A DNA stretch of 64,000 nucleotides, taken from Escherichia phage vB_EcoM-CHD94UKE2. The stretch is taken from sequence record MZ234031.1. One strand, written 5' to 3'. The stretch's first letter is position 1. Every line of letters begins with the position of its first letter. Shown piece after piece: positions 8,829 to 64,000 of the stretch. Below the pieces are notes generated by a model. The model saw nothing but the letters and a program-made list of their open reading frames with translations, was not told the origin of the DNA and made no database searches. The position numbers and the translations under genes are program-made.

Positions 8829-9833
8829 ATGTTTAAAAAGTATAGCAGTCTTGAAAATCATTACAACTCTAAATTTATTGAAAAACTTTATAGCTTAGGA
8901 TTGACTGGCGGCGAATGGGTAGCTCGTGAAAAGATTCACGGCACAAATTTCTCATTGATTATTGAGCGTGATAAAGTAACTTGCGCTAAACGTACTGGAC
9001 CGATTCTTCCTGCTGAAGATTTCTTTGGGTATGAAATTATTCTAAAGAATTACGCTGATTCCATTAAAGCAGTACAAGATATTATGGAAACTTCAGCTGT
9101 TGTGACTTATCAGGTATTTGGCGAATTTGCTGGTCCTGGTATTCAGAAAAATGTTGATTATGGTAATAAAGATTTTTACGTGTTTGATATTATTGTTACT
9201 ACCGAAAGTGGTGATGTAACTTATGTTGATGATTACATGATGGAATCGTTTTGTAATTCATTTGGGTTTAAAATCGCTCCACTTTTGGGTCGTGGTAAAT
9301 TTGAAGATCTTATTAAACTTCCAAATGATTTGGATTCTGTTGTTCCGTCTTATAATTTTACCGTAGATAATGCAGGTTTAATTGACGCTAACAAATGTGT
9401 TTGGAAAGCTGAAGCCAAAGGCGAAGTATTTACCGCTGAAGGATATGTATTGAAACCTTGTTATCCTTCTTGGCTTCATAATGGAAATCGTGTAGCCATC
9501 AAATGCAAGAATTCTAAATTTAGTGAAAAGAAAAAGTCTGATAAGCCTATTAAAGCTAAAGTTGAATTGTCAGAAGCTGATAATAAATTGGTTGGAATTT
9601 TAGCTTGTTATGTTACATTGAACCGAGTAAATAACGTTATTTCCAAAATTGGCGAAATTGGTCCAAAAGATTTTGGAAAGGTAATGGGGCTAACTGTTCA
9701 AGATATTTTGGAAGAAACTTCTCGTGAAGGTATTACTTTAACTCAAGCAGATAATCCTTCTTTGATTAAAAAGGAATTAGTTAAAATGGTACAAGATGTA
9801 CTTCGTCCGGCTTGGATTGAGTTGGTGAGCTAA
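8829..9833 (+). CDS. rnlB: RNA ligase 2 (Rnl2)
   Basis: 334 aa; nucleotidyltransferase lysine motif KIHGTN near N-terminus; matches T4 Rnl2 length. Confidence 0.9.
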
Positions 9834-57876: not shown

Positions 57877-58458
57877 ATGGCGAGTTTAATTTTTACTTAT
57901 GCAGCAATGAATGCTGGAAAATCTGCTTCTCTTTTGACTGCTGCGCATAATTATAAAGAACGTGGAATGAGTGTATTAGTTCTTAAGCCTGCTATTGATA
58001 CTCGCGATTCTGTCTGTGAAGTCGTTTCTCGCATTGGAATTAAGCAGGAAGCGAATATTATTACGGATGATATGGATATTTTTGAGTTCTATAAATGGGC
58101 TGAAGCACAAAAAGATATTCATTGTGTATTTGTAGATGAAGCTCAGTTTTTAAAAACTGAACAGGTGCATCAATTAAGCCGAATTGTCGATACATATAAT
58201 GTTCCTGTTATGGCTTATGGATTAAGGACTGATTTCGCTGGAAAATTATTTGAAGGTTCTAAAGAACTTTTGGCGATTGCAGATAAACTTATTGAACTAA
58301 AAGCAGTTTGTCATTGTGGTAAAAAAGCTATTATGACAGCTCGATTAATGGAAGATGGAACACCAGTTAAAGAAGGTAATCAAATCTGTATTGGTGATGA
58401 AATTTATGTTTCTTTGTGTAGAAAACATTGGAATGAATTAACTAAAAAGCTCGGTTAG
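57877..58458 (+). CDS. tk: thymidine kinase
   Basis: 193 aa; P-loop AAMNAGKSAS; C-terminal CHCGKK...CRKH zinc ribbon; matches T4 Tk. Confidence 0.97.
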   Translation: MASLIFTYAAMNAGKSASLLTAAHNYKERGMSVLVLKPAIDTRDSVCEVVSRIGIKQEANIITDDMDIFEFYKWAEAQKDIHCVFVDEAQFLKTEQVHQLSRIVDTYNVPVMAYGLRTDFAGKLFEGSKELLAIADKLIELKAVCHCGKKAIMTARLMEDGTPVKEGNQICIGDEIYVSLCRKHWNELTKKLG

Positions 58459-59406: not shown

Positions 59407-59430
59407 AGTCTCCTTCGGGAGACTTTTTTC
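59407..59430 (+). terminator. intrinsic terminator after ORF 59016
   Basis: AGTCTCC-TTCG-GGAGACT plus TTTTTT. Confidence 0.75.
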
Positions 59431-59497: not shown

Positions 59498-59686
59498 ATG
59501 AAAATTGAAGCACTCAATCAAGAAGGAAATATCTACGTCATCATTAATGGTGATTTTTTCGTCGACATGGATGAAGTTACTAGTGAAGAACTTGTAGAAC
59601 TTCTTAAGAAACGTTATAATATGTGTGATGAAGTTGCAACTCACATGGCGTGTGCAATATTCTCTCTTTCATATGTGGTAGAATAA
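59498..59686 (+). CDS. small hypothetical protein
   Basis: track start TTG 59453; ATG 59498 after AAAGAGGAGAAC; 62 aa. Confidence 0.55.
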
Positions 59687-59889
59687 TGATTAGTATCGAA
59701 CAAGCGGATAAAATTAAGGAATTGGTATCTTTAATTCGTAAAGCAGATGAGGAACTTAGTGACTTTGCTTGGTTTTCGTCAGGCATTGCAAATAAAAGTA
59801 TTGAAGAACTTGAAGATAAAGTTAATAATGCTGTAGAAGCGTTAGATATGTTTCTTGATGAAATTATCGATCATAATACGAGAGTTTAA
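59686..59889 (+). CDS. small helical protein (small-paralog family)
   Basis: ATG 59686 in TAATG junction; [19 protein letters not shown]... Confidence 0.55.
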   Translation: MISIEQADKIKELVSLIRKADEELSDFAWFSSGIANKSIEELEDKVNNAVEALDMFLDEIIDHNTRV

Positions 59890-59891
59890 GT

Positions 59892-60086
59892 ATGCTAACA
59901 CGCGAACAGTTTGAAAAAATCATTAAATTAGCACGTGATATTGAAATAGATTCATATCAATTAGCAGTTGAGCATTGTGAAGGATATTCATACGATGGTA
60001 TAGAAGCAGCTAAAAAGGATTTGGATAAATCTAAAGCTAAGTTAGTTCAATATCTTGAAATGATTAGGTGGAATAATGAAAACTGA
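59892..60086 (+). CDS. small helical protein (small-paralog family)
   Basis: 64 aa, MLTREQFEKIIKLARDIE... Confidence 0.55.
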   Translation: MLTREQFEKIIKLARDIEIDSYQLAVEHCEGYSYDGIEAAKKDLDKSKAKLVQYLEMIRWNNEN

Positions 60087-60249
60087 AAAGCAGATGTTTT
60101 TAATGAAGCTAATTGAAGAATATGCTAATGCAGTTTCTGACTATGAATGTTCTTCTCGTGAAAGAGGTACAGCTTTCGCTAAAGAAGAATTGAAAATCAT
60201 GGTTGATGCTCATACAAAGCTTCAGAATTTTATTGAAAACGTCATTTAA
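60076..60249 (+). CDS. small helical protein (small-paralog family), 57 aa
   Basis: ATG 60076 overlapping previous ORF end; MKTEKQMFLMKLIEEYANAV...; below ORF-track cutoff. Confidence 0.4.
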   Translation: MKTEKQMFLMKLIEEYANAVSDYECSSRERGTAFAKEELKIMVDAHTKLQNFIENVI

Positions 60250-60251
60250 TG

Positions 60252-60281
60252 GTTTACAAGTTGGCAAGGTTATGATATAGT
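60252..60281 (+). promoter_or_regulatory. putative early promoter
   Basis: GTTTAC 60252-60257, 17-nt spacer, TATAGT 60276-60281. Confidence 0.45.
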
Positions 60282-60309: not shown

Positions 60310-60414
60310 ATGAAAGTTTTGTTTGTTGTGTATGTGATGATTCAATATAATTACCCAATGTTTACTTATAATCTGGTGAACAACATTATTGATATTATTC
60401 AAAGGAGTATGTAA
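60310..60414 (+). CDS. 34-aa hydrophobic upstream ORF, translationally coupled to next gene
   Basis: ATG after AAGGAGAAGAGA; MKVLFVVYVMIQYNYPMFTYNLVNNIIDIIQRSM; stop overlaps next ATG (TAATG). Confidence 0.3.
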   Translation: MKVLFVVYVMIQYNYPMFTYNLVNNIIDIIQRSM

Positions 60415-60599
60415 TGACAAGTGAGCAGGCTTTTAAATTAAAAGAATTAATTGAAACATATAGCAAAGCTGTTCATACAGCAACAGTTATTGATGAATCA
60501 GCTTTCTCCGGACATGCTAACAAGATTAAATACAAAACTCTTATGGAAGAAGCTAAAGTAAATCTTGATTCTTATATTGAAACTTTAATTGGTGAATAA
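60414..60599 (+). CDS. small helical protein (small-paralog family)
   Basis: 61 aa, MTSEQAFKLKELIETYSKAV... Confidence 0.55.
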   Translation: MTSEQAFKLKELIETYSKAVHTATVIDESAFSGHANKIKYKTLMEEAKVNLDSYIETLIGE

Positions 60600-60600
60600 C

Positions 60601-60867
60601 ATGGGCTTTCCTAAATTAGAAGTAGGTGATTTAGTTTTAACAAAATTATGGAATGGTGTTCAATCAGTAGAAATCTGCCAATATCGTGGAGCAACAGGTA
60701 ATTTGATGTACACGATTTATAATCCAGAAATTTTGTTAGAGTGTCATTTGGAACGCTTTATAAAAGACACCGATAGTATGCCTTATAGTGTATCAATTGT
60801 ACGTAAATCTGATACAAAGGAATATTCTAAAATTTTAGAACAAATTCGTGCCAATAAAAAGGATTAA
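60601..60867 (+). CDS. hypothetical protein
   Basis: track start TTG 60589; ATG 60601; 88 aa. Confidence 0.55.
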   Translation: MGFPKLEVGDLVLTKLWNGVQSVEICQYRGATGNLMYTIYNPEILLECHLERFIKDTDSMPYSVSIVRKSDTKEYSKILEQIRANKKD

Positions 60868-60868
60868 T

Positions 60869-61402
60869 ATGAAACGATTAGTATTAGAAGTTAGTCCGCT
60901 TTTTGGTGAATTGGCTATAGAAAAAGTAAATAACATGTATCGTTTGACGCAAGAAGACGATATGCTATATTTTACGCCTAGTGAAATCATTCATTTAACC
61001 CAAATTGAATATCCTTATACTGATAAAATAGTAAGCATCAATGATGAGCACAAAATTCATTTTTATTCTTCATGCCCAGGATTTAATATTAAAAGTGAGT
61101 CAATGTGTTTATCAGTTATCCATTGGGATAGTTTTATAGATAAGATTAAATATTTTTATTATTCTAATGAAAGAAAACATAGTTTAAAATGGCTCAAAAA
61201 TTGCAATGCTATTATTACTAACGCTTGCAATCAGAATGATGAAACTCTTTTAAATGTATCAAAATGTTATGAAGAGGGAGATGTCTTAACTATTCGCCAA
61301 ATTGACGATTTTCGATCACATATTGTCACATTTACCAAAGACGAAGCTATTGCGTTAAAGACTTATCTTGATTCTGTCATTCCAACTATGATTTCAAAGT
61401 GA
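60869..61402 (+). CDS. hypothetical protein, paralog pair member 1
   Basis: ATG 60869 (track starts upstream at 60848); C-terminus FTKDEAIALKTYLDSVIPTM shared with next ORF. Confidence 0.6.
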   Translation: MKRLVLEVSPLFGELAIEKVNNMYRLTQEDDMLYFTPSEIIHLTQIEYPYTDKIVSINDEHKIHFYSSCPGFNIKSESMCLSVIHWDSFIDKIKYFYYSNERKHSLKWLKNCNAIITNACNQNDETLLNVSKCYEEGDVLTIRQIDDFRSHIVTFTKDEAIALKTYLDSVIPTMISK

Positions 61403-61408
61403 GGAAAT

Positions 61409-61930
61409 ATGTTTATTTCAAGTGGAAGCGGTTTAATTCGTGTTGAATTTAAAAATGACATCTTTCTTAGTCAAGGAGATGATATTATTAAAATGAGTTA
61501 TGACGAAATCAAGAAAATTTGTCATGCTCTTGAAAGTCATGGAAAGGAAAATGCTACTATCGATATAGGTGATTTATGGGTGACACTTTATGAAGTATCC
61601 GAAGGATTTAACATTGAAGATGAAAACAACATTTTAGCTATTGATAAAAGAAGTGATTTGTTTGATGTATTAAAAGTTTATGAACAGTCAAATGGTGGAA
61701 GAAAAGCTGTATTAGTTTATCAAAAACCACATTCATGTGGAACTGCTTCAATCATTTCAAATATTGAAGATGAAACTGATACTTATATGTGTGTTTTAAA
61801 AGCTGGTGGTGACCGTCATCCGGATTTTATTTCTATTCGTCAAAATAATGGAGAAATTTCATTATCAAAATCAGAAGCTGAAGCTATGATTAAGTATTTA
61901 ACAACTGTTACACCTTCAATGAAAGGATAA
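61409..61930 (+). CDS. hypothetical protein, paralog pair member 2
   Basis: 173 aa; C-terminus LSKSEAEAMIKYLTTVTPSM. Confidence 0.6.
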   Translation: MFISSGSGLIRVEFKNDIFLSQGDDIIKMSYDEIKKICHALESHGKENATIDIGDLWVTLYEVSEGFNIEDENNILAIDKRSDLFDVLKVYEQSNGGRKAVLVYQKPHSCGTASIISNIEDETDTYMCVLKAGGDRHPDFISIRQNNGEISLSKSEAEAMIKYLTTVTPSMKG

Positions 61931-61932
61931 TT

Positions 61933-62394
61933 ATGATTATTAATGAAAACTCTTGGCATTATAAATTATTCAAAATGTTTAACGACGAATGGAAACGACC
62001 TAAGACACTTTGTGCATATTTTTGGTCTATTGTTATCCCTACATTTTTCGTTTCTTTTTTCGGATGTACTATACTCGCAGGTCTAACTATTATCTGTGCA
62101 GAAATCATACAGAAATGGCTTATTTTTGGTAGTTTATGGACTCTTATTCCATCAGCATTTATACTTGCCATTTTGCTTGTTTTACTTATTATCGGTTCAT
62201 TTGTTATTCCTGCACAACTACATGAAAAATATAAAGATTATAAATGGAAAAAGGATTATGCTTTACATGTAGAAAATATTGATAGGGCGTATAAAGGTTT
62301 ACCTCCTATTCAACCCAAGAAATCTATTATCGTCGAATTTTTAAAAGCGCGTAAAGCTAAAGTATGTCCTGTTATTGAATATAAGGCTGAATGA
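61933..62394 (+). CDS. multi-pass membrane protein
   Basis: 153 aa; at least three hydrophobic helices. Confidence 0.6.
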   Translation: MIINENSWHYKLFKMFNDEWKRPKTLCAYFWSIVIPTFFVSFFGCTILAGLTIICAEIIQKWLIFGSLWTLIPSAFILAILLVLLIIGSFVIPAQLHEKYKDYKWKKDYALHVENIDRAYKGLPPIQPKKSIIVEFLKARKAKVCPVIEYKAE

Positions 62395-63404
62395 TGAAAA
62401 CAGTAATGAAAAGCTATTTTGGTAGTCATCTTTATGGAACTTCTACTCCAGAATCTGATGTAGATTTTAAAGAAATCTTTGTTCCTCCTGCTCGCGATAT
62501 TCTTATCGGAAATGTTAAAGAGCATATGAGTAAAAACACTAACAACACATCATCTAAAAACACTAAAGATGATATTGACCATGAACTATACAGTCTTAAA
62601 TATTTCTTTAAATTAGCAGCAGATGGTGAAACTGTAGCGTTAGATATGCTTCACACTCCACCTGAGTTAGTGGTTAAATCTGATTTGCCTGATGTGTGGA
62701 AGTTTATTCAAGACAACCGTTCTCGTTTTTATACGACTAACATGAAATCCTATTTAGGATATGTCCGTAAGCAAGCTTCTAAATACGGCGTTAAGGGTTC
62801 TCGTTTGGCTGCATTACGTGATGTATTGAAAGTAGTTAATCAAATCCCTGAGCAGTGGGTTGATTACCAAGAAGATGGTTCTATTAAGCAGCGTCGTACT
62901 AAAGTTGAAGATATTAAGCATCGTCTTCCAGAAAACGAATTCTGTGAATGGGTGTTCCATAATCATGAGAAAACAGGCCCACAGACGTTCTACACAGTGT
63001 TGGGTCGTAAATATCAGACAACGCTTTCTCTTATTGAGCTTAAGCAGTCACTGAACAAATTAGATGCTGAATATGGTGAACGCGCTCGTAAGGCCGAAGC
63101 CAATGAAGGTATTGACTGGAAAGCTCTGAGTCATGCTTGCCGTGGTGGACTCCAACTATTGGAAATTTACAAAACTGGTGACTTGGTTTATCCACTCCAA
63201 GATGCTCCATTTATTCTCGACGTGAAGTTGGGTAAACATCCATTTAAAACGGTTCAAGAGTTTTTGGAAGATGTGGTCGATCAAGTAGAAGCAGCATCTA
63301 CTGAAGCTTCTAAGAACGGTATGCAGCAAAAAGTAGACATGAGTTTCTGGGATGACTTCCTTGAGAAGGTCTATCTTGAAAACCATCGAAGTTATTATAA
63401 ATGA
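62391..63404 (+). CDS. hypothetical protein with Pol-beta-type nucleotidyltransferase-like N-terminal motif
   Basis: 337 aa; N-terminal GSHLYGTSTPESDVDF resembles hG[GS]x9-13Dh[DE] NTase signature; terminator downstream. Confidence 0.6.
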   Translation: MMKTVMKSYFGSHLYGTSTPESDVDFKEIFVPPARDILIGNVKEHMSKNTNNTSSKNTKDDIDHELYSLKYFFKLAADGETVALDMLHTPPELVVKSDLPDVWKFIQDNRSRFYTTNMKSYLGYVRKQASKYGVKGSRLAALRDVLKVVNQIPEQWVDYQEDGSIKQRRTKVEDIKHRLPENEFCEWVFHNHEKTGPQTFYTVLGRKYQTTLSLIELKQSLNKLDAEYGERARKAEANEGIDWKALSHACRGGLQLLEIYKTGDLVYPLQDAPFILDVKLGKHPFKTVQEFLEDVVDQVEAASTEASKNGMQQKVDMSFWDDFLEKVYLENHRSYYK

Positions 63405-63405
63405 T

Positions 63406-63430
63406 AGGGAGCCTTCGGGCTCCCTTTTTT
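63406..63430 (+). terminator. intrinsic terminator after ORF 62391
   Basis: AGGGAGCC-TTCG-GGCTCCCT plus TTTTTT. Confidence 0.75.
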
Positions 63431-63455
63431 ATTTTAAAAATTTTTTCACAAAACT

Positions 63456-63485
63456 GTTTACAAGCATAAAGCTTTATGGTACTAT
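63456..63485 (+). promoter_or_regulatory. early promoter
   Basis: UP-like AAAAATTTTTTCACAAAACT, GTTTAC 63456-63461, TACTAT 63480-63485. Confidence 0.7.
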
Positions 63486-63521
63486 ACAACTATCAAAACA
63501 AACACTTAAACGGAAAACAAA

Positions 63522-63671
63522 ATGAAAATTACACCAATTGAAGTAAAAAAGTTGATTGATACAGAAGAAATTTCAGAGTGTTTTGAAAGTTTCTTAGAAG
63601 ACGCAACTGAAGATAACGCGGTTTATCTCGCCCAGAAAATTATCGAAACTTATTTGGAGAAGAATCAATGA
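63522..63671 (+). CDS. small hypothetical protein (49 aa)
   Basis: ATG after early promoter; ATGA coupling to next ORF; below ORF-track cutoff. Confidence 0.4.
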   Translation: MKITPIEVKKLIDTEEISECFESFLEDATEDNAVYLAQKIIETYLEKNQ

Positions 63672-63931
63672 CAGTTTACGTAGATGTTTTAATGAATCAT
63701 GGATGGAAACTTCGCGGTCATCCAACTAAAAATTGTCATATGTTCACTGATGGAGATATTGAAGAGCTTCATGAAATGGCAGAAGCAATAGGAATGAAAC
63801 GTTCTTGGTTTCAAGATAAACGCATTAAACATTATGACTTACACGCTCGCCGACGCCAAAAAGCTGTAGAACTTGGAGCTGTAGAAGTATCTCGCCGTGA
63901 AGCAGTAAAAATTTGGCGAACGTTAAAATAA
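63668..63931 (+). CDS. hypothetical protein
   Basis: 87 aa, MTVYVDVLMNHGWKLRGHPTKNCHMFTDGDIEELHEMAEAIGMKRSWFQD... Confidence 0.6.
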   Translation: MTVYVDVLMNHGWKLRGHPTKNCHMFTDGDIEELHEMAEAIGMKRSWFQDKRIKHYDLHARRRQKAVELGAVEVSRREAVKIWRTLK

Positions 63932-63934
63932 ATT

Positions 63935-63964
63935 GTTTACAGAAGGGTAGTAGTGTGATACTAT
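63935..63964 (+). promoter_or_regulatory. early promoter, PeSL-type (GGGTAG...TACCCTATC)
   Basis: GTTTAC 63935-63940, TACTAT 63959-63964. Confidence 0.7.
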
Positions 63965-64000
63965 TACCCTATCAAAACAAATGTGAGATTGGAGAATAAA

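Follow-up and report, generated by a model that had tools for sequence, protein, structure and literature searches.

An RlaP-type nucleotidyltransferase orthologous to T4 NrdC.11 in Escherichia phage vB_EcoM-CHD94UKE2: a candidate RNA 3'-end repair enzyme encoded behind an apparently independent membrane protein gene

A stretch of 64,000 nucleotides from Escherichia phage vB_EcoM-CHD94UKE2 (sequence record MZ234031.1; the whole stretch is hereafter called the window) contains two plus-strand open reading frames (ORFs), one coding for a membrane protein of 153 aa (61933..62394) and the other for a protein of 337 aa (62391..63404), which share an ATGA start/stop overlap on that strand (62391..62394; the ATG at 62391 lies over the TGA at 62392-62394). 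Both ORFs and their overlap had been described in a sequence-only reading of this DNA and were found again as described. The 337-aa protein is, almost beyond doubt, the ortholog of T4 NrdC.11 (NP_049709) with a Pol-beta fold, and it belongs to the RlaP family (PF10127) of Pol-beta-superfamily nucleotidyltransferases (NTases). The gene is already known, and its arrangement is an ordinary one. Taking all observations together, it is considered fairly probable that NrdC.11 patches damaged RNA ends for tRNA repair and that the membrane protein acts independently of it.

At the amino-acid level, the 337-aa protein does not differ from its counterpart in phage RB27 (100% identity), and it shares 99.4% identity with that of T2 and about 99% (four substitutions) with that of T4. 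The gene is under strong purifying selection, as 27 synonymous and no non-synonymous codon changes separate it from RB27, and 37 synonymous and four non-synonymous changes from T4. Its product scores 44.6 bits against PF10127 (gathering score 23; E=1.8e-11) and matches phrog_388, annotated as “nucleotidyltransferase,” from end to end (E=5.9e-137). A precomputed PF10127 match was present in 120 of 120 homologs listed.

The NTase signature, which the sequence-only reading had placed at the very start of the ORF, actually occupies residues 11-26 (GSHLYGTSTPESDVDF; 62421..62468, plus strand), with G11-S12 followed by the metal-binding pair D23-x-D25. Its conservation was followed in two alignments, one of 137 relatives sharing 26-99% identity (A1) and one of nine distant viral and cellular relatives (A5). 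G11, S12, Y15, S22, D23, D25, E65 and D85 are invariant in A1, and G11, S12, D23, D25 and D85 are also invariant in A5. The last of these residues, encoded at 62643..62645 (plus strand) within the sequence ALDMLH, is a candidate for the third catalytic carboxylate, while a further conserved acidic position is represented by E65 in A1 and by D63 in A5. In the C-terminal part, A1 reveals a conserved set consisting of K135, R138, K207, R231, D242, K244, S247, H248 and R251. The distant relatives in A5 are collinear with the window protein and keep both the catalytic and the C-terminal invariant residues. The proposed G-S ... D-x-D signature is therefore real, given a PF10127 score above threshold and motif residues that do not vary among 137 relatives.

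An AlphaFold2 model calculated on the A1 alignment (predicted local distance difference test (pLDDT) 85.6; predicted template modelling score (pTM) 0.69) starts with an alpha/beta domain that contains the motif and continues with helices at residues 116-151, a beta-rich insert at 155-209 and a helical region at 214-335 that ends in a terminal helix at 317-335. The concern that the motif might lie outside a Pol-beta-like fold was thereby addressed, as the predicted structure puts it in a fold of the Pol-beta type. Comparison of the model with the PDB (Foldseek) yielded weak matches only, all of them Pol-beta-fold transferases: HalB, 3c18, KNTase/ANT(4'), Tam41, AadA and LinB. Sequence searches of the PDB with the single protein and with the 137-sequence profile returned nothing significant (best match Mnt, E=0.23). 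Similarly, the scores for the MNT/KNTase family PF01909 (13.7 bits; cutoff 21) and for MntA_antitoxin (13.3; cutoff 60) stayed below threshold. The crystal structure of PfRlaP, described as an N-terminal NTase domain with a C-terminal helical domain whose last helix packs back on the NTase domain, was not recovered from the PDB copy used, whether by sequence or by fold.

According to a prediction cited in PMC7824862, RlaP proteins replace the nucleotides that cleaved RNA has lost, before the RNA is ligated. A preprint of December 2025 characterises the RlaPs of two Pseudomonas species, P. fluorescens and P. aeruginosa (PMC12776372). These enzymes add one or two nucleoside monophosphates or deoxynucleoside monophosphates to RNA 3'-OH ends, prefer Mn2+ and do not act on DNA or protein (PMC12776372). 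On a tRNA mimic, their preference is for the broken end in the anticodon loop, and they partly rescue the aminoacylation of tRNA that is short of one nucleotide, and their labelling covers full-length tRNA, rRNA and cleaved tRNA with little nucleoside triphosphate (NTP) specificity (PMC12776372). T4 NrdC.11 was placed in cluster 5 of the PF10127 similarity network, under the designation “RlaP of unknown function” (PMC12776372).

As only the N-terminal half resembles canonical RlaP, a survey of genomic contexts was carried out for full-length NrdC.11-type relatives, covering 80 viral loci (38-99% identity) and 54 bacterial or archaeal loci (26-54% identity). In three of the viral loci (L126, L127 and L128), an HD-phosphatase with a P-loop polynucleotide kinase, an Rnl1-type ligase (PF09511) and the NrdC.11-type protein, the latter sharing 40-41% identity with the window protein, are encoded contiguously on one strand. 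L126, a 107-kb viral contig, also carries a second P-loop kinase (AAA_33/Zeta-toxin-like; L126:2285-2992) just upstream of its kinase/phosphatase-Rnl1-RlaP cassette. Rnl1 is encoded nearby in L116 and Rnl2 in L123. A CCA-adding enzyme occurs within 5 kb in the viral loci L109, L117 and L118 as well as in Rheinheimera phage Barba31A (84 kb, not T4-like), where a CCA-adding tRNA nucleotidyltransferase with an HD domain, a 139-aa protein and the NrdC.11-type RlaP are encoded on one strand (L006:2250-4900). The same distance of 5 kb in the 54 cellular loci includes RtcB in six cases and RtcA in two (either of them in 7/54), a CCA-adding enzyme in five and Pnkp together with Rnl1 in one; L155 and L157 exhibit the order CCA-adding enzyme, NrdC.11-type gene, RtcB. 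Moreover, proteins of ~640-720 aa in Desulfovibrio/Synergistaceae carry an NrdC.11-type domain as an N-terminal fusion to a complete canonical RlaP domain (PF10127, 250-287 bits); they are encoded on contigs of metagenome-assembled genomes (L152:4884-6800, L156:4854-6785, L166:3010-5175 and L172:4678-6834). This domain arrangement suggests that two distinct RlaP subtypes might work together, and no mention of such a fusion was found in the consulted parts of the RlaP literature. Consequently, the ligase cassettes, the RtcB and CCA-enzyme neighbours and the RlaP fusion support a role in RNA 3'-end repair for the NrdC.11-type subfamily, whose chemistry we infer.

The most likely mechanism would be that NrdC.11 adds one or two nucleotides, independently of a template, to the 3'-OH ends of damaged RNA ahead of ligation. 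Its substrates would mainly be tRNA halves cut and trimmed by host anticodon nucleases such as RloC. In this model, D23, D25 and D85 would coordinate metals, probably Mn2+, and the patched end would be sealed by the phage end-healing and ligase enzymes Pnkp, Rnl1 and Rnl2, of which Rnl2 is represented in the window by a T4 Rnl2-type RNA ligase gene (8829-9833, plus strand; PF09414 and PF18043). While the identity of both genes, the fold, the catalytic residues, the purifying selection and the context statistics are established here, an RNA 3'-end activity and a tRNA-repair role of the NrdC.11-type subfamily are inferred.

Several points weigh against this proposal. The PF10127 match extends over residues 7-135 of the protein and over positions 23-142 of the 249 in the profile, and an hhalign comparison between the NrdC.11 profile and the canonical RlaP domain aligned 38 columns, comprising the catalytic motif only. 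Only the N-terminal NTase half resembles the characterised Pseudomonas RlaPs at the sequence level, and the modelled beta-rich insert at 155-209 is extra in comparison with them. RlaP biochemistry is limited to the Pseudomonas enzymes (PMC12776372). In T4-like phages, nrdC.11 is not adjacent to pseT, rnlA or rnlB; no repair genes were found within 6 kb of it in T4-like viral loci, and the Pnkp and Rnl1 genes of T4 itself are located in other parts of its genome. Rnl2, the nearest ligase to nrdC.11 in the window, is 53 kb away, meaning that there is no local ligase association. Finally, the T4 segment nrdC.11-mobD.3 can be deleted with retention of viability on laboratory hosts (PMC9825161), and any role of NrdC.11 is therefore conditional.

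A related scenario, to which a smaller but appreciable likelihood is given, is that NrdC.11 acts on RNA 3' ends in another way, either by rebuilding or capping attacked tRNA acceptor (CCA) ends or by tailing or modifying host RNAs during early takeover. CCA-adding enzymes are immediate or near neighbours in L006, L109, L117, L118, L155, L157, L166 and L174, nrdC.11 is located in an early-type transcription unit, and the aforementioned labelling of full-length tRNA and rRNA, with its low NTP specificity, would be in agreement with such a function (PMC12776372). However, the tightest contexts are ligase/end-healing cassettes (Pnkp with Rnl1; RtcB with RtcA), which point to the rejoining of broken RNA, and no sign of toxicity or of a host shut-off role was seen for NrdC.11.

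The sequence-only reading had also drawn attention to the combination of an NTase with a membrane partner; the NTase was borne out, whereas a functional partnership was not, as the pairing is not conserved and the overlap is generic. It is considered very unlikely that the two genes constitute a module of NTase and membrane effector, be it Hailong-like, with HalB oligo-dA gating the HalA channel, similar to the cyclic-oligonucleotide-based antiphage signalling system (CBASS), or a phage counter-measure imitating the signal. Hailong does combine a transmembrane protein with an NTase (PMC13434031), and HalB is the best structural match to the NrdC.11 model in the Foldseek comparison, at 14% identity. 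KNTase and 3c18 reach comparable scores, though, and the resemblance is therefore one at the superfamily level; furthermore, a PDB search with the A1 profile did not return HalB at E<=10. When the membrane protein model was compared with the PDB by fold, no solved structure, HalA included, matched with E<1. The Hailong-like pair was rejected on these grounds, namely a pairing that is not conserved and a membrane protein without structural matches. No sequence or fold likeness to cGAS/DncV-like NTases (CD-NTases) was found and neither protein matched a PADLOC model, which led to the rejection of CD-NTase/CBASS and other PADLOC defence readings as well.

The distribution of the two genes argues in the same direction. 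In the 80 viral NrdC.11 loci, a membrane gene is found upstream in 45 (abutting in 13 and 0.3-2.6 kb away in 32) and is lacking in 35, and it was present in none of the 54 cellular loci. T4 and 46 near-identical records keep nrdC.11 but have mobD in the place of the membrane gene, and there is no membrane partner either in KVP40 and Barba31A, which carry genes for unrelated soluble proteins upstream of nrdC.11. In Klebsiella phage Wolf_ER13 and Acinetobacter phage Apostate, one or two genes separate the membrane gene from nrdC.11. In some phages the two genes are both present but unlinked, with a distance of ~72 kb between them on IMGVR 2974605215 (L012 versus L117), and on 3300031418_000008 (L026 versus L085) and two other contigs they are situated on opposite strands at a distance of several kb. 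Conversely, most members of the membrane protein family have no NTase nearby (none within 3 kb in 25 of 44 viral loci selected for the membrane gene), and the recurrent neighbours of the membrane gene are T4-like syntenic genes only, such as rI and nrdC.10; outside of T4-like phages, no recurrent neighbour was found. The neighbours of the NTase clade in cells and in divergent viruses, on the other hand, are RNA-repair genes. The ATGA overlap is not distinctive either, since a 4-nt overlap occurs in 11 of the 85 adjacent same-strand gene pairs of the window (any overlap: 37/85). In KVP40 and in a Klebsiella phage, an overlap of this type connects nrdC.11 with upstream genes that are unrelated and do not code for membrane proteins. 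The ATGA overlap reflects general tight gene packing.

One observation counts against the independence of the two genes. Where both lie within 6 kb of each other, the membrane gene is upstream on the same strand in 45/45 loci from several Straboviridae genera, which is compatible with a loose functional link. This constant placement is explained well enough by the inheritance of gene order in Straboviridae. Judged by these sequence comparisons, the membrane gene is most plausibly an independent, common phage gene that precedes nrdC.11 as a result of inherited early-region gene order and not as a working partner. A narrower proposal, according to which the Cys/His-bearing hairpin and NrdC.11 cooperate in those Tevenvirinae whose genes overlap, with, for example, an oligonucleotide made by the NTase gating or regulating the membrane protein as a Hailong analogue or antagonist and with T4 having lost the pairing through mobD invasion, is regarded as highly improbable. 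Equally little credence is given to the transfer of a nucleotide to a non-RNA acceptor, that is, a small molecule or antibiotic (KNTase, ANT, LinB) or a protein to be AMPylated (DrrA, GlnE, MntA), as the matches to such enzymes are at the generic superfamily level (5-13% identity), the PF01909 score is below threshold, no HEPN toxin or GlnA partner is encoded near nrdC.11 and the characterised RlaPs label neither protein nor DNA.

The 153-aa protein, whose gene had been thought to encode a multi-pass membrane protein, is indeed a membrane protein, its exact form being a two-pass hairpin according to hydropathy and AlphaFold. It matches phrog_944, a phage “membrane protein” family, over its full length (E=3.5e-50), and no Pfam family above threshold. 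Kyte-Doolittle analysis revealed hydrophobic segments at about residues 29-60 and 62-98, and the AlphaFold model (pLDDT 88.5) comprises strands at 2-4 and 149-151, helices at 8-16, 93-120 and 132-144, and transmembrane helices at 26-61 and 68-89. The codons of the latter two, as delimited by hydropathy and AlphaFold2, span 62008..62199 on the plus strand (62008-62115 and 62134-62199). Lysine and arginine abound at both termini, and the positive-inside rule therefore predicts an N-in/C-in hairpin in the inner membrane. An exhaustive profile search (E<=1e-3) assigned 2177 representative clusters (50% identity) to the phrog_944 family, for which there is neither a Pfam model nor a solved structure. 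The N-terminus carries the conserved motif NSWHY...PK.LC.YFW and the C-terminus KARKAKVCP.IEY; among 121 diverse relatives, C27 and C145 are the sole invariant residues, and S7, W8, H9, Y10, L26, Y29, A139, K143 and P146 are nearly so. The two invariant cysteines and the near-invariant SWHY motif fall on the predicted cytoplasmic side, and one might guess at a cytoplasmic Cys/His site. No paralog of the gene was found in the rest of the window or in the T4 46-61 kb region. The membrane gene is less constrained than nrdC.11, with 20 synonymous and 13 non-synonymous changes relative to RB27. In T2 (135 aa), Bas43 (116 aa) and other records it is frameshifted or truncated, while nrdC.11 is intact there.

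Translation of nrdC.11 from the ATG at 62391 is preceded by an AAGG Shine-Dalgarno-like element 7-10 nt upstream; most GenBank records use the alternative ATG at 62394 as the start, which yields a protein of 336 aa. Minus-strand ORFs over the interval do not exceed 76 aa, and all of them lie inside the two conserved plus-strand genes. Directly 3' of nrdC.11, an intrinsic-terminator-like hairpin with a T-run is found on the plus strand (63406..63433; AGGGAGCC TTCG GGCTCCCT). The hairpin itself (63406-63425) has an 8-bp stem with six G-C pairs and would close the transcription unit right after nrdC.11. It is followed by a promoter-like site (63457-63485, TTTACA-N17-TACTAT) and by two small genes reaching to 63931, so that, contrary to what had been supposed, the gene pair does not end the window. 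The likeliest upstream promoter of the unit ending at 63425 is a putative sigma-70/T4-early-like promoter at 60253..60281 (plus strand; TTTACA-17-TATAGT with TG), which is preceded by a terminator-like hairpin at 59407-59424. Such promoter assignments are weak, because a consensus scan returned 31 sites compared with 26.6 +/- 5.7 in shuffled sequence and thus did not exceed expectation.

The window derives from a T2/RB27-like Tequatrovirus. Megablast searches matched the region 61400-64000 in 696 phage records, with 100% identity in Escherichia phages G3F7, G3F10, WilhelmHis and UTI-E2. The gene order corresponds to that of the T4 early region (T4 minus strand), beginning with tk (57877-58458), rI.1, rI, rI.-1 and small mobD.x-like genes. 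In T4, these are followed by mobD.1, mobD, which codes for an HNH homing endonuclease, and nrdC.11; in the window, they are followed by two mobD.1/y05I-like genes, the membrane gene and nrdC.11. From this comparison it follows that the membrane gene fills the slot held by mobD in T4. The mobD gene is restricted to 47 phage records, T4 and 46 near-identical ones, each at >=99% identity. The two mobD.1/y05I-like genes (60848-61402 and 61409-61930; PF24449 and PF24448), which code for putative transcription factors, are tandem paralogs of which T4 has one copy. The first copy shares only ~55-63% DNA identity with RB27, and the region is therefore mosaic. Further upstream, small ORFs of ~57-79 aa with visibly similar helical sequences are located at 59650-59889, 59892-60086, 60076-60249 and 60414-60599. 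They look like T4 mobD.2a-mobD.5 and tk.1 and may, judging from their sequences, represent a locally amplified family. Downstream of nrdC.11, the two small genes (63522-63931) encode a 49-aa ORF (phrog_6888) and an 87-aa DUF4031 protein (PF13223), each with a TTTACA-N17-TACTAT promoter-like site close before it. In RB27 and T4, by contrast, nrdC.11 runs straight to nrdC.10 without the two small genes, which are therefore considered an insertion in a hyperplastic region.

In GenBank and UniRef, many NrdC.11 orthologs bear the label “thioredoxin,” and one is called “putative HNH homing endonuclease.” These labels look like errors that spread from the names of the neighbouring genes nrdC and mobD. 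The label of T4 mobD.4, [quoted passage not shown] is a similar case. The present analysis clears up the annotation of NrdC.11, which is an RlaP-type nucleotidyltransferase and neither a thioredoxin nor one half of a signalling or defence pair. Whether NrdC.11 provides the missing nucleotide-restoring step of Pnkp/Rnl1 tRNA repair in T4-like phages is a question raised earlier by others: the prediction is cited in PMC7824862, and bacterial RlaPs were used to test it in PMC12776372. If this were true, T4-like phages could overcome anticodon nucleases that both cut and trim, RloC being an example. For the NrdC.11-type subfamily specifically, the tRNA-repair hypothesis is strengthened by the contexts found in this survey, including the ligase cassettes, RtcB, the CCA neighbours and the RlaP fusion, and the survey supplies concrete orthologs for testing.

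In comparison with known systems, the window gene shares its position with nrdC.11 of T4, T2, RB27 and RB69, to the nrdC.10 side of mobD.1-like genes in the early tk-nrdC region, with the difference that mobD is directly upstream in T4 and the membrane gene takes this place in the window phage. The membrane protein and its phrog_944 relatives have in common a hairpin of two helices and conserved motifs at the termini (SWHY/LC.YFW/K.CP.IE). Hailong is located in bacterial defence islands, whereas nrdC.11 is a phage early gene. KNTase/MNT proteins resemble NrdC.11 in fold, in the GS-DxD signature and in the layout of an NTase domain with a helical bundle; however, identity amounts to 9-12%, and NrdC.11 has neither a HEPN partner nor an antibiotic context. 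The RlaP family shares with NrdC.11 an N-terminal Pol-beta NTase domain with GS...DxD...D and, judging by the predicted model of NrdC.11, a helical C-terminal part. The two are assigned to different similarity clusters, NrdC.11 to cluster 5 and the characterised RlaPs to cluster 1a (PMC12776372), but both the RlaP family and the NrdC.11-type clade are associated in genomes with RNA ligases and with end-healing enzymes.

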